Shown piece by piece: positions 54,563 through 64,000 of a stretch of 64,000 nucleotides of DNA. Below the pieces are notes generated by a model that did no database searches, had not been told where the DNA came from, and saw nothing but the letters and a program-made list of their open reading frames with translations. The stretch covers positions 100,843 to 164,842 of the forward strand of contig JABGUJ010000002.1 in the NCBI GenBank assembly GCA_018646625.1, in the 5' to 3' direction. How positions within the stretch are numbered: the first letter of the stretch is position 1; each line of letters opens with the position of its first letter. The stretch comes from Candidatus Woesearchaeota archaeon. Its GTDB lineage: Archaea > Nanobdellota > Nanobdellia > Woesearchaeales > JABGUJ01. The translations under genes and the position numbers were made by a program.

Positions 54563-54655
54563 GGGCCTATAGCATAGCCTGGATAGTGCGTCCGGCTTCG
54601 GAAGACTTATGTCTGTAGATACCGGTTGACGGGGGTTCGAATCCTCCTAGGCTCA
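54563..54655 (+). tRNA. tRNA-Arg(TCG) with a 19 nt intron at the canonical 37/38 position
   Basis: Acceptor gggccta/taggctc, D stem gcat/gtgc, anticodon stem tccgg/ccggt with loop ctTCGg|[aagacttatgtctgtagat]|a, variable tgac, T arm ggggg-ttcgaat-cctcc. An Arg anticodon is the most parsimonious reading; Pro(CGG) is the alternative. Confidence 0.55.
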
Positions 54656-55507
54656 TCCAATTCTTTTAATTCTGTTGATAGAAGTTCTTATTCTAAAGAT
54701 GATGAAAATAAACAGAGTTTTGATACATACTTTTACTTCTCAGAGACCGAAGAATTCCTTGAATGGATTAAGTTGAAGGTAGGTTCTGAACATTTTATCC
54801 ACATGAAGTGTTATTTTATGAAACATCTTGCAGGTAAGAAGTTCAAAGGACCATTAGAGTTGTATAAGTATATTTCAGAACAGAAAGGCATCAATAATCT
54901 AGTCAAAGCAGCAAGAGGTTATTTGAACTATTGTGAAGCCACAGATAAACTTTCAGCTGAGACTATCGACAAATATAGAAAGATACTGAAACTTAAGAGA
55001 ACTAAGATAGACTATCATGTTCCAGATGATAAAGAGATCGTTAAGAATTATAATCTGATTAAAGGTAACAAAAACCTTGAGTTGGTTTATTTGGTCCTAG
55101 CTTGCTCAGGTCTTAGGTATATAGAAGTTCTTCGCTTTCTGAAGAACTATGATAAGACCAAGTTTGTTGATCACGGAACCTTTGTCTCGTATAATATATC
55201 CGAGATTCGTGGTTCGAAAAGTGTTAACAATCTCTACCTACCCCGGTTTGTTTATGATAAACTAAACCATGTAGACAATACTTATAATTCTCTTAGACAA
55301 AGATTCAAAGAGAAAGGATGTACATTTACTTTGAAATACTTACGTAAATGGAATTACAATTTCTTAATCTACAACGGAGTTCCTGAGTCTGTAGCAGATT
55401 TTATTCAAGGAAGATCAAGTAATTCAGTTAGTGCTAATCATTATTTAGCTAAGAGTCAGCAGGCTAATCATTGGTATGGGATGATTACTCAAAAATTAAT
55501 ATTATAG
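54626..55507 (+). mobile_element. int: Tyrosine recombinase/integrase abutting the tRNA-Arg 3' end (true start uncertain, probably 54660-54803)
   Basis: C-terminal catalytic region LACSGLRYIEVLRF (Arg) ... LRKWNYNFL ... GRSSNSVSANHYLA (R/H...Y nucleophile region). The reading frame runs into the tRNA 3' end, as in pNOB8-type tRNA-targeting archaeal integrases. Confidence 0.6.
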
Positions 55508-55923
55508 TGTCTTAAAACGCGTGCAATCAATTCAATGAATAGAAAAAAACAAAGCATAAAGGGGATCGCTATATTTGCACCAAGACACACTATTGCCAAT
55601 AAATATGTTGATTCTAATAATAAATAAGGGTGCATTACACACGTTATAAACAACGCACTCAAAAAGGTGTTAAAAACCATTATGTGAGTATATGTGGATA
55701 TGTGCCAGGCTTCAATATGATCTTTAGTGAAATAAAACAGAACATATAGCAAGATTAAGAAAATAATAGATGAACCATAATATTCTGAGAACATCGAAGA
55801 CAAAATGTTTGCGATCTGTGCATTATCCTGATTTGTATTCATTATATAAGATGTTGCTGTCGTGAGTAGAATACTTATTGTAGCACAAAATGTTACGGTG
55901 TTTTCAAAGCTCTGAGATGTCAT
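55489..55923 (-). CDS. Polytopic membrane protein (4 TM)
   Basis: Hydrophobic helices throughout; convergent with the integrase gene. Confidence 0.35.
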   Translation of the reverse strand: MTSQSFENTVTFCATISILLTTATSYIMNTNQDNAQIANILSSMFSEYYGSSIIFLILLYVLFYFTKDHIEAWHISTYTHIMVFNTFLSALFITCVMHPYLLLESTYLLAIVCLGANIAIPFMLCFFLFIELIARVLRHYNINF

Positions 55924-56059
55924 AGTATTAACTAGTCCGTGCTAATTTATATTTTTATCTTATTCAACCACTAATAGACTATATAGTCTGTTATAGAGGT
56001 ATATGTAGTTGATTACGGGTAGAAAAAGAGAATGTTTGGCTTGATTACTCTGAATTAGT

Positions 56060-57025
56060 TTAGTAATCCCACTCATATTGAATAGTTCCAGTATTATCAG
56101 TATTATGGCCCCAATCATAATACTCATCAGGCAGATATTCAGCGTATTGGCATACTTCACTCGTATATTTACTTAGTTTTTCTTCAATCTCACTCGGCTT
56201 TAAAGTAGATAGTTTACCTCCACCCGAGTCATGAAAAATCTCACCTTTAGATTCCAGTTCTTTTTTAAGTTCCAAATATGATGTACAGCGTTTAGAGTTA
56301 TCTAGTGCTTTTAATCGACTATGTGTTTTTTGTGTTACTAAATCAAACTCTTTTAAGATTTGTCTATTTTTTATAAGGCTAATACGATCTAGAATAAATC
56401 TCATTTCTTGAGGTGAATCTTTTAATTCTTTCCAAATCTTAGAGAACTTGTCTTGTAATTTATGTATATCTTTTATAATCAAGAGAGTTGTATGCCATAT
56501 TTCGTCTCTGTAAAGCCGACATTTAATTCCTTTTACAGAATTCAAATGTGTTTCAATCTCTCTTTTAAGATCAATTAGCGATTGCGGTGGCCTTACGGCA
56601 AATGCCAAAACTCTACCTCCTGTCTGCGTAGGAAAAGTAATATATTTTCCACTACCAATTAAATTTCCAGGTTCATGAAACAAAGGTGCGTTCTTAAAAA
56701 TCACTTTTTCAAGTTCTTTAATGAGCTTTCGTTCATTAGAAGCAATCATAGGTCCTGCAATGGTTATGTGAGGAACGTAATGATATTTGGGATGCCCCAA
56801 ACCATACGATCTCTGTAAATCATCATAACGATCCTTAATATATTTTCTTGGATATCCTGAATAACGATATTCTAGAATAATAGAGTCAGAGACTTCTTTT
56901 ATCTTATCTTCAGGTTCATCATCATAATCATCTTCTATTTCATCTTCAGGTTCATCATCAGACTCATCACTCGATAAGTCTTCATCTGAATCAAAATATG
57001 CCAAGAACCTTTCAAACAAACCCAT
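56060..57025 (-). CDS. 2H phosphoesterase superfamily protein (LigT/CPDase-like) with a poly-acidic N-terminal extension
   Basis: Two H-x-T/S-x motifs, VPHITIAGP and WHTTLLII, correctly spaced. Acidic N-terminal tract DSDEDLSSDESDDEPEDEIEDDYDDEPED. Confidence 0.6.
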   Translation of the reverse strand: MGLFERFLAYFDSDEDLSSDESDDEPEDEIEDDYDDEPEDKIKEVSDSIILEYRYSGYPRKYIKDRYDDLQRSYGLGHPKYHYVPHITIAGPMIASNERKLIKELEKVIFKNAPLFHEPGNLIGSGKYITFPTQTGGRVLAFAVRPPQSLIDLKREIETHLNSVKGIKCRLYRDEIWHTTLLIIKDIHKLQDKFSKIWKELKDSPQEMRFILDRISLIKNRQILKEFDLVTQKTHSRLKALDNSKRCTSYLELKKELESKGEIFHDSGGGKLSTLKPSEIEEKLSKYTSEVCQYAEYLPDEYYDWGHNTDNTGTIQYEWDY

Positions 57026-57120
57026 TTTAGAGTGATTTAGAGCTAATTACTATAATAAATTATTGGCTTGAAAGGTGCGGATCCGCTCAAGCCATTACCA
57101 GTTCAAGTTATGGAATCAAC

Positions 57121-57306
57121 TCAATGATCGGTTTTTAAGAAATATGCTCCAGCCAATGCACTAACTAATGCTATTAAACCTAGTATAATATAGGTTATTT
57201 TGTTCAGTGATCCCATTGATAGACTCATTACAGCCACAGTAGAGAATGCAAAAAGTAGAAGACCCAGAGATAACAATCGATGCGTGATAAAACTTATTAC
57301 TCCCAT
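57121..57306 (-). CDS. Small two-TM membrane protein
   Basis: 61 aa, almost entirely hydrophobic. Confidence 0.25.
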   Translation of the reverse strand: MGVISFITHRLLSLGLLLFAFSTVAVMSLSMGSLNKITYIILGLIALVSALAGAYFLKTDH

Positions 57307-57370
57307 ACCCTTGCTAGAATTAAGCTAAATATATATAATTTGCGAATTTAGCAGAAAATCACTAAAACCA

Positions 57371-57589
57371 TTATCGAAATAAACACTTTTTCTTTTTATG
57401 CCTATAATACTCTTCCTTCAACTGTGTACAATATTCAAAGATCCACCTATCGGGCAAATGCATAGGGTAATGATCAGAACTATAGTTCACTCTAGGACCT
57501 AGATAATCTTCCATTTGTTTAATCTTGGTTTTCAACTGTGTAAGAGATTGAACCTTCTTCTTCTTTGGAAATAGTTTATGCCAGATCAT
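57371..57589 (-). CDS. Small basic hypothetical protein
   Basis: 72 aa. Overlaps the upstream gene by 4 nt. Confidence 0.25.
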   Translation of the reverse strand: MIWHKLFPKKKKVQSLTQLKTKIKQMEDYLGPRVNYSSDHYPMHLPDRWIFEYCTQLKEEYYRHKKKKCLFR

Positions 57590-58086
57590 TTATGTTTAGT
57601 AAGCAGTTTCTTCTTACGCAAATACTCTTTCTCAGTTATTTTGCCTTCGGCTAATTTAACATCGAGTATCTTAAGGGGATCTGAGGAGCTCTTATCTGAT
57701 GTTGGGGTTTTATAGAAAGATAACTTATGTTTTAGATCTGTTATTCTATTCTTTCTTGATCTTCCAACTAACGCCGCAATAGCAAACAAAACTAATCCAG
57801 GAATAATATAATAGAATAAACCAATGACTCCTGCTATTATCAATACTATCTCGGCACCACTACATGAATCGAGTTCACTAATTTCATCATGAATGGCTTT
57901 ATCTACAGAAGAAATACTACCTAAATCTGAACCGTCAATTTGAATCTCGTTGTTGCACTCAAGACAGTAAACTAAAATAGTCTCTCCAGACTTTAGTTGC
58001 GTAACTTCTTCAGAACTTAGTTCGGATTCATGACTTGCAGAACATTTGGGGCAGATTATGTCTATAGTTTTGGTTGATTTAGTCAT
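57586..58086 (-). CDS. Zinc-ribbon + TM + SHOCT-domain protein
   Basis: N-terminal CPKCSAS...CLECNN zinc ribbon, a TM helix (VLIIAGVIGLFYYIIPGLVLFAIAALV) and C-terminal KLAEGKITEKEYLRKKKLL matching the SHOCT consensus. Confidence 0.5.
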   Translation of the reverse strand: MTKSTKTIDIICPKCSASHESELSSEEVTQLKSGETILVYCLECNNEIQIDGSDLGSISSVDKAIHDEISELDSCSGAEIVLIIAGVIGLFYYIIPGLVLFAIAALVGRSRKNRITDLKHKLSFYKTPTSDKSSSDPLKILDVKLAEGKITEKEYLRKKKLLTKHK

Positions 58087-58326
58087 ACAGGGCTGATATG
58101 TAATTAGCTATATAAATTTTGGCTTAAAAGATGCGAGCTCGCTAAGCCTTGCTGTCAGGTTGTGGGTCCCCTCAAAATGCGCAGTGATTATAGAGCTTTA
58201 TTCCTTTATTTATCTTGCGGGGTAGAAATGCGCCTTATTCCGGCCAGACAAAGATAATCTACGGAATTCTCGAAAACATTATATACCGTTAAGATAATCT
58301 GTAGACATGAACGGGGGTTTTAAACT

Positions 58327-59610
58327 ATGATTAAGCAAGTATTAATTTTACTAGTATTCACATTTCTAATAGCAGGCTGCGGAGCTCCGGACCAAGAGAT
58401 TCTTGATGATTCCGTTGAGCCCACAGCCATGATAGCTGATGAGCCTATTCAAGACATACCAATTGAAGAGCCAGATCCTGTTGCTGAAGTAATAGAAAAA
58501 AGCTGCCCCGACAGTTGTGAAGATGATAATGAATGTACTGAAGATGTATGTTCCGATGAAACTAACTTTGAATGCGTTCACACTGAAATTGTTCCTTGTT
58601 GTGGTGATGGCGTTTGTGATGAAGAAGAAGAGTGCGAAGAAGATTGTAAAACTGAAATAGATACAGAACTAATTTTTGTTAATATATCTAATCTGTTTGG
58701 CGATATAGATTATTACGAGTTAGGTGGAGTATTCAAGAAGCTGTTCTTTGAAATTGAGAATACAAATGATGTGCCCGTAGTGATTGAACAAATAAATCTT
58801 AAAGTCCAGAATGTCAAAGGAGATCAATACGATAAAAAGCAAGAGATCTACTCACATACAATCACTGAAAAAATAAATGTTAACTCTCATGCACTTATTT
58901 ACTTTGAAAGTGAAATTGAGCCTATGGTTTTAGAGCTAAAGAGTCCAAAGAATGTATTGGAGAAATTTGACATAGAAATTGAGCTAGAGTTGCAAAGTGG
59001 AGATGTTATAAAGAAAACTGAAACATTGCTCCTTGATGATTTTTACTTCTATACTCACCTGTTCCATGGTGGAAGTGGTACCACATACTATAATGACCTT
59101 AGTTTTTGGCCACTAAGTCACGAGTATAGAGGATATTTACAAGGCAGTTCATTAGTTGCAAGTCAAATAAATCAAGACAACTGGATAACGGGTCTTGGCA
59201 TTCCCGTCTCTACAGGAAGCCTCATACTTGAGTTCAAAGAAGATTGGGTAGAAACTGAAAAGGAAGTTGACGGTAAAACTAGAACATACATCACTTCGTT
59301 CCCTTTAGAGTTCAGAACGAATAACTTAGAGTCATTACCTAGCTTTGATAATTTGGTGCTTGATCTGTTCTTATTTTCGCACGATAACAGATACTTTTAC
59401 AGTTTTTCAAGTGAAGATCTGGCTACGCTCGAGTTCAAAACAGAAGGCCTAACCTCCAGGGCCACTTTAAATTTAACTACTGATTTCAAGAAGACCTTTA
59501 CTACATATACAAATATTTTGGTATCATATGCTGAACTTAGAGAAAAGAATCATCTTGAGAAAGTGGCGACTGCATATCGAAGAGAGGTTATGAGAGATAC
59601 TGATGATTAA
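58327..59610 (+). CDS. Secreted lipoprotein with an acidic Cys-rich N-terminal module
   Basis: Lipobox-like LIAGCGA, then CPDSCEDDNECTEDVCSDETNFECVHTEIVPCCGDGVCDEEEECEEDCK. Confidence 0.45.
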   Translation: MIKQVLILLVFTFLIAGCGAPDQEILDDSVEPTAMIADEPIQDIPIEEPDPVAEVIEKSCPDSCEDDNECTEDVCSDETNFECVHTEIVPCCGDGVCDEEEECEEDCKTEIDTELIFVNISNLFGDIDYYELGGVFKKLFFEIENTNDVPVVIEQINLKVQNVKGDQYDKKQEIYSHTITEKINVNSHALIYFESEIEPMVLELKSPKNVLEKFDIEIELELQSGDVIKKTETLLLDDFYFYTHLFHGGSGTTYYNDLSFWPLSHEYRGYLQGSSLVASQINQDNWITGLGIPVSTGSLILEFKEDWVETEKEVDGKTRTYITSFPLEFRTNNLESLPSFDNLVLDLFLFSHDNRYFYSFSSEDLATLEFKTEGLTSRATLNLTTDFKKTFTTYTNILVSYAELREKNHLEKVATAYRREVMRDTDD

Positions 59611-59637
59611 TTCCAATATTTGGCAGGGGTTTAAAAG

Positions 59638-60789
59638 ATGAAAAAACTATACTTTTTATTGCTTATAACAATCATAGCCGCTATTGGCTGTTCTACCGTT
59701 GAAGAACCTAAACAATTATGCAATGCACCATATATTGAGTTTATGGCTGGTGAGTGTTGTTTGGATGCAGACAATAATTCTATTTGCGATTCGGATGAGA
59801 TATCTGAAGATTTAAGTACCTCTCAACCTATCGAGGTATTAGTGGAAGAAACAGATAATTTGTTAATTGAAGAATCACTATTAATAGTTCCTGCGGACGA
59901 CTTAATATCATTTATTGACTCTGTTATTAATATCGCCTTAGAGTTTAGGGAGAATGATTGGGGATTTAGACTAAACAAATTCGGTCTTCATAATTATGAT
60001 GTTCCAGTCGAGTCAAAGTATGATTTCTATGACAGTCCCTATGCAACTATATTCATCTTTGATCATAATATTACTGACAAAGCGATAACAAGTGCAGTTA
60101 ATGCCAGGTACGCTGATTTTAAATTGTTTATGGAATACAAATATAACACAAGTCAGTATAAAATTAAGTTTGGCCGTTATCCGGAATATACTACTTCAGA
60201 CTTTAAGATAGAATTTGTTTTCGAGACCGAAGACCTTCTCGAGGATAACAACTTATTTACGTTCAAGAGAGGCGCTATAGTTACCAATGTAGTTCAAGGA
60301 GACCAGTTTGATGGAGATGACTTTTATGGCGCTTGGGGACTTACAAGATTTTATGTTCCATGCGGAGCAAATGCATTTGTTGAAATATATCCTAGTGCTT
60401 ATGCAGATTCGGGTGAATGGGACTGGTCGATGGATGAACTAAAAGAAGCATTAGAAAATGATGATGTTAATAACAGAGATGTTGCTTTGCAAATATCAAA
60501 TTACTGTTCACAGGTAGATCTAGTTGAATATAACTCGAAAAGGGCGACGGTAAAAGACTCCCCCACTTTGGAAATTCTCAAGGGGATAACGTCAGTTAGT
60601 TGCGAAGGAAGACAACTAACATTTGTATGCGATAAGAAATCTATGAAATGTTATGGCGGTGGTTGTACAAATACTTTCAAGAAATGGCGTGATGAAGAGA
60701 AAGAATGTTTCGATAATGAAGATTATGCCCTCTTCAAACATTATCGCGTAACCAAAGGTTGTCAAGATCTTCCCAATTGGTTAGGTTAA
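59638..60789 (+). CDS. Secreted lipoprotein (hypothetical)
   Basis: Lipobox-like AAIGCST; Cys-containing N-terminal region. Confidence 0.4.
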   Translation: MKKLYFLLLITIIAAIGCSTVEEPKQLCNAPYIEFMAGECCLDADNNSICDSDEISEDLSTSQPIEVLVEETDNLLIEESLLIVPADDLISFIDSVINIALEFRENDWGFRLNKFGLHNYDVPVESKYDFYDSPYATIFIFDHNITDKAITSAVNARYADFKLFMEYKYNTSQYKIKFGRYPEYTTSDFKIEFVFETEDLLEDNNLFTFKRGAIVTNVVQGDQFDGDDFYGAWGLTRFYVPCGANAFVEIYPSAYADSGEWDWSMDELKEALENDDVNNRDVALQISNYCSQVDLVEYNSKRATVKDSPTLEILKGITSVSCEGRQLTFVCDKKSMKCYGGGCTNTFKKWRDEEKECFDNEDYALFKHYRVTKGCQDLPNWLG

Positions 60790-60794
60790 CGAAA

Positions 60795-61415
60795 ATGGTA
60801 ACGAAGAAACCAACTACTAAACATATTACTCGCTCTGCAACAGTTGTTACAGCCATCTTCATAGTAATTCTGGCAGTTCTTACTGTTCTAATTTTCAAAA
60901 CATACACATTAACTTCAGAGTGCGGTGAACAGACTGAACTGCAGGCCCAGATTGAAGAGATGAATGAAGCAAATGAGAAATTGAATACGCGGGTTATCAA
61001 GCTTGAGAAAGAGATTACAGATGCTGTTAAAGATGAATATGATCTTAGACAAGAGAAAGAAAGTCTAGAATCAACTAAAATATCTTTGGAAAAGCAGTTA
61101 AGAAATACCCGAGAAGAATTGACAAGAGCTATGAAGACACTACAAGATATATATTCACAAAGCGATGCTGAGTTCAGCGCATATGTACGACAATATTCTG
61201 GAAATTTGGTAGTCATAAGTAAAAGTGCTCCTGATGTTCATGAGTGCGTATTCACATTGAATGGAAACCGTAAGATGGGTGGAATCTACGATCTTGAAAT
61301 GGGGCAAGAAGTTGAGTTTGAAAAAGGTAAGAATTTCCCTGACGATATCAATGTAATGAGAGTAGATATTGCTTGCGTAGAAGGAGCTTACTCTTTGACT
61401 TTCGATCTAAAATAA
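60795..61415 (+). CDS. N-terminally anchored coiled-coil membrane protein
   Basis: TM helix VVTAIFIVILAVLTVLIF, then a heptad-rich segment (QAQIEEMNEANEKLNTRVIKLEKEI...). The start is placed at the ATG just after the upstream stop. Confidence 0.4.
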   Translation: MVTKKPTTKHITRSATVVTAIFIVILAVLTVLIFKTYTLTSECGEQTELQAQIEEMNEANEKLNTRVIKLEKEITDAVKDEYDLRQEKESLESTKISLEKQLRNTREELTRAMKTLQDIYSQSDAEFSAYVRQYSGNLVVISKSAPDVHECVFTLNGNRKMGGIYDLEMGQEVEFEKGKNFPDDINVMRVDIACVEGAYSLTFDLK

Positions 61416-61416
61416 A

Positions 61417-62700
61417 ATGACATCATACCTTATTGAATTCAGATTTCAGTCAGTACGGACAAAGCAATACTTAAAGCGAATGGTCTATGAAGTTAATAAA
61501 CGATTCAATGTTGGTAAAGGAAAACACGTACCACATATTTCTTTGGCAGGACCGTTGACTACAAATAACGAGAGAAAACTTATTTCTGATTTTGCAAAAG
61601 TATGTTCTAAAACTAAAGTTATGAAGTTTAAAATGCAAGGATTTGGGACCTTCAGTAATAGTGATGGCAAGAATGTTGTTCATGTGAAGATCGGTGCCAA
61701 TGAACGTCTAAATGACTTCAGGGTTAATATCAGAGATGCCATAAAGACATACTGCACTCTAAAATCTCATGATGAAAAAGACCATAAGGATCATTTCGGG
61801 TATCATAGCACAATTGCAATGAAGTTGAGCGATCATAAATTTCAGCAGATTAAAAGATATATCAATAGCAAACCAAGACCTGACTATTCACAAATTGTTA
61901 TGCGTATGACTCTCATCAAAGGTGGAAAGATTCTGAGAGAGTACGACTTTATGCAAAGAAGACTGCTAACACGAGGTCAAGCTTTGCACAGGAATGAACT
62001 TAGAAAGAGTAAAGAGTTGCTTAGAAGGTTTATGGAGGGCACTTATAATCCTAACAAGGGATTATCTGGAGAATCTAAAACAAAAGTTGAACCCGCAAAA
62101 GTGACAGATTGGGTAGAATGTCCCACCACATCCGATAATTTAACCCAGTGTGATTCTGTACCAAAGACTGGTTTGATCAAACGCTTCACTAATTTATTCT
62201 CAGGTCCCAAAACATATCTTACTTCAGACTTACATCTAGATCACGCAAATATAATCAGATACTGTAATCGCCCTTTTAAGGATAAACGTGAAATGAACAA
62301 AGTTCTAGTAAAGAATTGGAATAATACCATCAGACCTAAAGATAAAGTATACTTTCTAGGAGATTTAGCTTATGGTAGAGGCAGTCATAAAACAGATTGG
62401 TGGTTAAAAAAACTAAACGGAGATATAACGTTTATTGATGGAAATCACGATAATCTTAAGAGAACTCGCGTGCATAAGAAGCTGATAATTCAATACAAGA
62501 GTAAGCAGTTTATGTTGGTACACAATCCTAGAGATATTCCCTCTGACTGGAAAGGGTGGGTGATCTGTGGACACCATCATAACAATCACCCTAATACATT
62601 CCCGTTAGTGAATATGAAAGATAAGATAATCAATGTTTCAACTGAGTTAACTGACTATAAACCAATACTATTTGATGAAATACTAGAGATGATGGAATAA
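61417..62700 (+). CDS. Fusion protein: N-terminal 2H phosphoesterase domain + C-terminal calcineurin-like metallophosphoesterase domain
   Basis: 2H motifs VPHISLAGP and YHSTIAM, paralogous to 56060-57025. Metallophosphoesterase motifs in order: SDLHLDH, GDLAYG, GNHD, LVHNP, GHHH. Confidence 0.6.
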   Translation: MTSYLIEFRFQSVRTKQYLKRMVYEVNKRFNVGKGKHVPHISLAGPLTTNNERKLISDFAKVCSKTKVMKFKMQGFGTFSNSDGKNVVHVKIGANERLNDFRVNIRDAIKTYCTLKSHDEKDHKDHFGYHSTIAMKLSDHKFQQIKRYINSKPRPDYSQIVMRMTLIKGGKILREYDFMQRRLLTRGQALHRNELRKSKELLRRFMEGTYNPNKGLSGESKTKVEPAKVTDWVECPTTSDNLTQCDSVPKTGLIKRFTNLFSGPKTYLTSDLHLDHANIIRYCNRPFKDKREMNKVLVKNWNNTIRPKDKVYFLGDLAYGRGSHKTDWWLKKLNGDITFIDGNHDNLKRTRVHKKLIIQYKSKQFMLVHNPRDIPSDWKGWVICGHHHNNHPNTFPLVNMKDKIINVSTELTDYKPILFDEILEMME

Positions 62701-64000
62701 TGGCGAAAGTTGTAATTCAAACAGGAGGATCGATGGAGTTTCATCCCGTAGATAGTAGTGAACTGGAAGATACTGCATCTACCCTTGCATTCAAAGAGGC
62801 ATTGAGAAAAGAGAGAGAGAGAACTAAACGATTAAGAAAGAGAAGACGAACCCTGTTTACTTCGTTTATAGTTGTAATTGTCGCAGTCATTCTGTTATTG
62901 AATTATTATGGATTAGAAGATAATGAAGATGTTTCTGAAGTTGCGGTTGTTTTGGATAGTCCTGTTATGAATGAAGAAAATGATAATGTTGTGCTGCAGA
63001 ATGAAATGAGAGCAAATCCGCAATCTGAATTTGTGCCTGAAGAGATTAGTTACAAAGAGCAATTTGTGTATCCTGAAGCCTATCACAATAAGTTGGTTGA
63101 GCTAAAAGGTTATGCGACTACAAGATCGGCTACGAGAGTGGGCAAAACATATGTTGATACCTATATTCTAGATGATTTTGGTCGAGAATTAAGATTAGTA
63201 GGGGCAGAAGGTAATGAGATTGTTAATGATCAGTTATATTTAGCTAAAGGCACATTCAAGAATTGGAATACAGGTTTAGGCATAGATGTGAAAACAATTA
63301 AGACAGCTGAGCGTGAACAAATTGAGAAAGTAAAAGAGTTAGAGAATATTATTCCCGAGCTGGATCCCGAGACATATGAGAATACTAGCGAGACTTGGAG
63401 TGCAATCTATTGGTTACGGCAGAAAGCATGTTCAATAACTGACTTAATAACTACCAAATACAATGATATCAAAGAAGTTGCTGCGCAGAAAGTAGAAGAC
63501 GCAAAAGCTAAAGCTGAGCTTGAACTTGAGAAAGCTGAAGCTAAAGCCGAGTGGGAAGAAAAGAAGCGTAAAGAGAAAGAAGTGAAGATCAATGAAGAGC
63601 TAACAAGACGTCAGAGTACTTCTCAAGATAGTAGTGATGGATCAGGAATGAATACAAATCTGATTGAAGCCGAAATCCTAAGATTGGTCAATGAAGAACG
63701 AAGTAGGAATAAGGTATTCTCCTTGAGGGCATCTTCTCATCTAGATGATTTCTCAAAACGTTGGTCAAACAAAATGCTTACAGGAAATTTCTTAGAGCAC
63801 AGCAATTTAGGATTCCCTTATAGTTCCCAAGCGGCAGAGAATATTGCTTATACACCAATCCACTATTCAGTTATTGGTTGTGGTTCGACCTATGGTGAAG
63901 AAAACATGGCTGATTGCTTTGTTAGCGGCTGGATCGAAAGCTCGGGTCATCACACAAATATGATAAATTCGCGTTACTCCAGTACAGGCATTGGTGTTGC
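62700..64000 (+). CDS. Membrane-anchored CAP/SCP/PR-1-domain protein, 3' end truncated by the window
   Basis: My translation from the ATG at 62700 gives an N-terminal TM (LFTSFIVVIVAVILLLNYY) and a coiled-coil KAKAELELEKAEAKAEWEEKKRKEKE. The C-terminal region ...LRASSHLDDFSKRWSNKML...AENIAYT...GHHTNMINSRYSSTGIGV matches CAP-domain motifs. No stop codon falls before position 64000. Confidence 0.45.
   Translation, partial: MAKVVIQTGGSMEFHPVDSSELEDTASTLAFKEALRKERERTKRLRKRRRTLFTSFIVVIVAVILLLNYYGLEDNEDVSEVAVVLDSPVMNEENDNVVLQNEMRANPQSEFVPEEISYKEQFVYPEAYHNKLVELKGYATTRSATRVGKTYVDTYILDDFGRELRLVGAEGNEIVNDQLYLAKGTFKNWNTGLGIDVKTIKTAEREQIEKVKELENIIPELDPETYENTSETWSAIYWLRQKACSITDLITTKYNDIKEVAAQKVEDAKAKAELELEKAEAKAEWEEKKRKEKEVKINEELTRRQSTSQDSSDGSGMNTNLIEAEILRLVNEERSRNKVFSLRASSHLDDFSKRWSNKMLTGNFLEHSNLGFPYSSQAAENIAYTPIHYSVIGCGSTYGEENMADCFVSGWIESSGHHTNMINSRYSSTGIGV

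Follow-up and report, generated by a model that had tools for sequence, protein, structure and literature searches.

A probable cryptic, plasmid-like element integrated at tRNA-Arg(UCG) in a marine Candidatus Woesearchaeota chromosome

A stretch of 15,414 bp beginning inside a tRNA-Arg(UCG) gene of a marine Candidatus Woesearchaeota (DPANN) chromosome is very probably an integrative mobile element, best classed as cryptic integrated and plasmid-like. The window, that is, the whole 64,000-nucleotide stretch of DNA under analysis, holds its left 9.4 kb; once the contig was extended with public assemblies (L001 coordinate = window − 51416), the element could be followed from window position 54616 to window-equivalent 70070 (Table 1). 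A sequence-only reading of the window had proposed a tRNA-targeting integrative element with its far border past the window end. Both points were borne out, the former by two att copies, a split integrase, an element-free related strain and sister elements, and the latter by the position of attR.

That reading had also named the tRNA correctly. Alignment to tRNA-Arg(TCG) from L022 and L026, where it has no intron, gives the identity of the gene, with the anticodon at 54598-54600 in the loop CUUCGGA, and reveals an intron of ~19 nt at position 37/38 (about 54602-54620). The Glu(ttc) call made by ARAGORN was rejected, as it shifts the anticodon by one base in the 5' direction. The S17e, Alba and RelBE genes recognized upstream were likewise recovered, the last as RelB/ParE-RelE. 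The tRNA gene is intact despite the insertion; the attL core starts with the last 6 nt of the intron, runs through the 3' exon and stops 1 nt past it. In a direct-repeat search of the extended contig, a perfect 41-bp copy of this tRNA 3' end was found 15,414 bp away, while a 38-nt version of the repeat occurred twice in none of 100 shuffles, with no chance matches. The same arrangement is seen in independent ENA, NCBI and Logan assemblies, and all contigs of the source strain that cross the site contain the element. Neither a circular (attP) form nor an exactly empty attB was found, and a scan of JGI metagenomes returned only attR and the variant of a related strain, L011.

Table 1. Features of the integrated element and its target; positions beyond 64,000 are window-equivalent
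Feature	Position	Strand	Evidence or remark
tRNA-Arg(UCG), integration target	54563..54655	+	Rfam RF00005, 47 bits
attL	54616..54656	+	41-bp core TAGATACCGGTTGACGGGGGTTCGAATCCTCCTAGGCTCAT; perfect direct repeat with attR
intC, SSV-type integrase C-terminal fragment	54626..55507	+	PF16795, phrog_5127, SSV1 Int structures
144-aa membrane protein, ~4 hydrophobic segments, cargo	55489..55923	-	no family match
321-aa stand-alone 2H phosphoesterase, very acidic N-terminal tail	56060..57025	-	LigT_PEase 26 bits vs 23.3 cutoff
61-aa protein, two hydrophobic helices	57121..57306	-	no family match
72-aa basic protein, function unknown	57371..57589	-	ORF, Pfam/PHROG searches
166-aa protein: N-terminal zinc ribbon, two TM, weak C-terminal SHOCT-like motif	57586..58086	-	
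427-aa Cys-rich predicted lipoprotein, lipobox LIAGC	58327..59610	+	
383-aa Cys-rich predicted lipoprotein, lipobox AAIGC	59638..60789	+	
206-aa protein, N-terminal TM anchor and coiled coil	60795..61415	+	
427-aa 2H-metallophosphoesterase fusion	61417..62700	+	PF13563 52.8 bits; phrog_547 E 6e-41
448-aa TM protein, C-terminal CAP domain	62700..64000 (gene end 64046)	+	CAP 48.2 bits
p554	64097-65761	+	L001 gene table
TPR protein	65745-66707	+	L001 gene table
p138	66741-67157	-	L001 gene table
mini-MCM p327	67227-68210	-	fold comparison
ERCC4 nuclease	68200-68634	-	ERCC4, E 1e-17
p154	68657-69121	-	L001 gene table
RHH	69135-69263	-	L001 gene table
p179	69349-69888	+	ORFs near attR
intN, 84-aa ORF	69821-70075 = L001 18405-18659	+	crosses attR
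attR	70030-70070 = L001 18614-18654		identical to attL, 41/41 positions

The tyrosine recombinase seen running out of the tRNA is indeed an integrase, and of the SSV type; the gene at this border, however, is only the C-terminal fragment, intC, whose ORF starts within the 3' part of the tRNA and reads outward. It matches PF16795 Phage_integr_3 (129.6 bits, E 1e-37; cutoff 27), phrog_5127 (E 6e-39) and the catalytic domain of the SSV1 integrase (PDB 3VCF/4DKS/3UXU, E 6e-8). The catalytic residues, whose presence the first reading had left to alignment, are R164, K198, K237xxR240, R263 and Y273 (ORF numbering), and the SSV-type signature R...K...KxxR...R...Y is invariant across 29 aligned sequences. 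Since the 84-aa ORF that passes through attR shares one frame with intC through attL, the integrase gene has been broken into two parts, intC and intN, the latter encoding the N-terminal RHH-type, CcdA-like domain. Such a split is the hallmark of archaeal "suicidal" integrases. Both parts are open and reconstitute a 357-aa protein with all catalytic residues, which aligns end to end and with no frameshift to the uninterrupted 343-aa integrase P0009 (44% identity, 96% coverage), whose gene carries tRNA T-arm-like sequence at the site equivalent to att. No full-length version of the integrase itself is on record, all members of its 100%-identity cluster being ≤293 aa. The sequence-only reading had advised a search for homologs among archaeal viruses and integrative plasmids: the best deposited-virus matches come from fuselloviruses, from a guttavirus and from pleomorphic proviruses of Archaeoglobus (27-33% identity), and pT26-2 stands at 32%. 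In IMG/VR, neither the integrase nor the mini-MCM has a close relative.

Comparison with other strains supports the same reading. In L011 the tRNA is 99% and the flanks are 89-93% identical, and the element is absent; remnants do persist at this tRNA. In another strain, a sister element adjoins the same ParE gene (intC 86%, mini-MCM 75% identical) and keeps the backbone order found here, with restriction-modification genes as its cargo. Of the nine closest integrase loci in DPANN MAGs, seven abut a tRNA; four have att repeats of 32-72 bp placed 5.8-10.6 kb apart, and in two of these intN crosses attR. The L022 element, in which a search for an att repeat found none, appears to be ~5-6 kb long, judging from its ORF and Pfam content. 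It has the integrase type, the ERCC4 nuclease and a p154-like gene in common with the present element, but nothing else, and envelope genes are absent. The skew in composition that might have betrayed an island did not appear, as the element cannot be told from its host by GC content (35.4% against 35.2%) or by tetranucleotide usage.

From this anatomy, the circular form would have carried an intact integrase gene of ~350 aa with the 41-bp attP in its 5' third. Following the paradigm of SSV1, pTN3 and pT26-2, the SSV-type integrase would have mediated recombination between attP and the same 41 bp in tRNA-Arg(UCG). In the integrated copy the tRNA is intact and the integrase split, intC leading out of attL and intN into attR. 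The integrated copy would not excise by itself and would need an intact related integrase in trans; close sister integrases (86% identity), which are present in the same habitat, could be its source.

The backbone, which lies outside the window and is conserved in one sister element, encodes a mini-MCM AAA+ ATPase, a nuclease of the ERCC4 type, regulators of the RHH and AbrB-like kinds and two small proteins without assigned function, all as intact ORFs. The mini-MCM (327 aa), from a very small family with 11 proteins, consists of an AAA+ core and a C-terminal winged helix. The N-terminal domain of MCM proteins is missing, and the Walker B motif reads IND, not IDE, which makes helicase activity uncertain; the mini-MCM is probably a replication helicase or initiator. 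Its Foldseek matches include A460 of SSV-K1 and one SSV7 protein.

The cargo (~11 kb) is swappable among sister elements, and its functions are predicted at the level of domains. Here it is mostly envelope-related, with two Cys-rich lipoproteins, five TM proteins (one with a CAP domain) and a TM-bearing metalloprotease-like protein, next to a TPR protein and two paralogous 2H phosphoesterases. The 166-aa zinc-ribbon protein has a homolog and the LIAGC lipoprotein a partial homolog in the L018 element, while the N-terminal Cys motif of the AAIGC lipoprotein recurs in the L019 element. Of two domain calls in the sequence-only reading, CAP held on the full-length protein (48 bits, cutoff 21); SHOCT, at 22 bits, fell under the Pfam threshold of 27.

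Both 2H claims of that reading stood up to analysis. The two 2H proteins lie on opposite strands, have two HxT/S motifs each and are paralogous (25% identity over 243 aa, E 6e-17). The stand-alone protein (H86-I-T, H178-T-T) is rare, with 67 clusters among 1.84 billion representatives. In the fusion, a 2H domain (aa 1-205; H40-I-S, H130-S-T) is joined by a disordered linker to a calcineurin-like metallophosphoesterase (aa 250-427) whose DxH/GD/GNH/H/GHxH motifs are invariant and whose fold matches 1xm7; the AF2 model has a pLDDT of 86, and there are no sequence-level PDB matches. The two HxT/S motifs and the predicted 2H fold are shared with LigT/ThpR- and YjcG-type enzymes, and the metallophosphoesterase motifs and fold matches (1xm7, 1s3l) with MJ0936/AQ665-type enzymes. 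Unlike these known enzymes, the fusion unites both domains in one polypeptide, with no characterized member of its family found, and the element adds the rare acidic-tailed paralog. Most likely, judging from the domains, the 2H half would open a phosphodiester, either 2',3'-cyclic or 2'-5', and the metallophosphoesterase would then strip the resulting phosphate; RNA ends, cyclic nucleotides or signalling oligonucleotides could be the substrate.

The sequence-only reading suggested that the two 2H enzymes, one of them joined to the metallophosphoesterase, form a counter-defence module, which for the benefit of the element would destroy cyclic or 2'-5' oligonucleotide messengers or repair RNA cut by defence nucleases. 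The catalytic and metal-binding motifs are all kept, the metallophosphoesterase half falls in a large phage family (phrog_547), one Methanosarcina homolog is flanked on either side by a type I R-M system, another lies near HEPN-MNT pairs, defence genes occupy the cargo slot of a sister element, and a poxvirus 2H cGAMP phosphodiesterase appears at rank 21 of the fold matches. Against this, the fusion is a widespread stand-alone family of 390 full-length relatives (Woesearchaeota, Nanoarchaeota, Methanosarcina, Methanoregulaceae) in varied, ordinary chromosomal contexts, for example next to radA or beside genes resembling those of type IV pili, and no partner gene is conserved; it occurs in none of the related integrase elements and has no PADLOC match. 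The best fold matches of its 2H half are of housekeeping type (YjcG, Usb1, plant CPDase, LigT) and point to no known anti-signalling enzyme in particular. Processing of 2',3'-cyclic nucleotides or RNA ends, as nucleotide salvage for a host of reduced biosynthesis, would be an equally simple role, and counter-defence appears rather improbable.

Two other views of the whole region deserve consideration. It might be the provirus form of an undescribed Woesearchaeota virus with a membrane, spindle-shaped or pleomorphic; the lipoproteins would then be spikes, the 61-aa two-helix protein would belong to the capsid or membrane, and the mini-MCM would serve replication. A length of 15.4 kb is typical of fusellovirus genomes, the integrase type was first seen in SSV1, and the integrase and mini-MCM matches cited above include virus proteins. 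Furthermore, TM or signal segments occur in 8 of ~20 element proteins, including two lipobox proteins and the small two-helix protein, and as most genes are ORFans, unrecognizable virion genes could be present. We nonetheless consider a provirus quite unlikely: PHROG and Pfam searches gave no capsid, spike or packaging match, IMG/VR lacks close relatives, the L022 element does without envelope genes, and the same-backbone sister has restriction-modification in their slot, which fits accessory cargo and not a virion module.

Alternatively, the region could be a decayed, permanently trapped remnant, a lineage-fixed genomic island that is no longer mobile. With the integrase gene split, self-excision is not expected (PMC8371274). 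The presence of the element on every site-spanning contig of the strain, the absence of attP and full-length integrase from the record, the fully host-like composition and the remnants at this tRNA in L011 all agree with such a fate. The identity of the att copies at 41/41 positions, the open intN and intC with their full-length product, the intact backbone ORFs and the sister integrases that could act in trans speak against decay, and we regard this view as doubtful while granting it some weight.

The cryptic, plasmid-like element favoured here has its closest known counterparts in thaumarchaeal NitEve-E3 and the pT26-2/pTN3 elements. Integrases of the SSV-type class are described as having PF16795, a gene that is split and an att 40-50 bp long (PMC8371274). 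With the integrases of SSV1/SSV2, pTN3 and pT26-2, that of the element shares PF16795, R...KxxR...Y, an att inside the integrase ORF that equals the tRNA 3' part (~40-50 bp), intN and intC at the borders and a restored tRNA; it differs in its CcdA-like N-terminal RHH domain, in an att core that begins within a tRNA intron and in its identity of ≤33% to any deposited virus or plasmid integrase. NitEve-E3 (Krupovic et al. 2019, PMC6563490), likewise cryptic and integrated, encodes an MCM helicase together with a split SSV1-like integrase; by description it resembles the present element in these two proteins, in the absence of recognizable virus genes, in a size of <20 kb and, for its class, in restriction-modification or other accessory cargo (PMC6563490), whereas the phylum differs and the MCM protein is here cut down to the AAA+ core and winged helix. 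The Thermococcales plasmids pTN3/TKV and pT26-2 likewise combine a suicidal integrase, a tRNA target, a plasmid-like backbone and variable cargo with tandem or repeated use of one tRNA (PMC7253208), although the integrase is the only backbone gene detected in common and their hosts are hyperthermophiles. The reviews name Sulfolobales, Thermococcales, Archaeoglobales and Methanosarcinales as hosts and leave DPANN unmentioned (PMC8371274, PMC7253208), while the present host is a marine and presumably mesophilic member of that group. The element is therefore of a kind already known from archaea, in a host group that is little studied.

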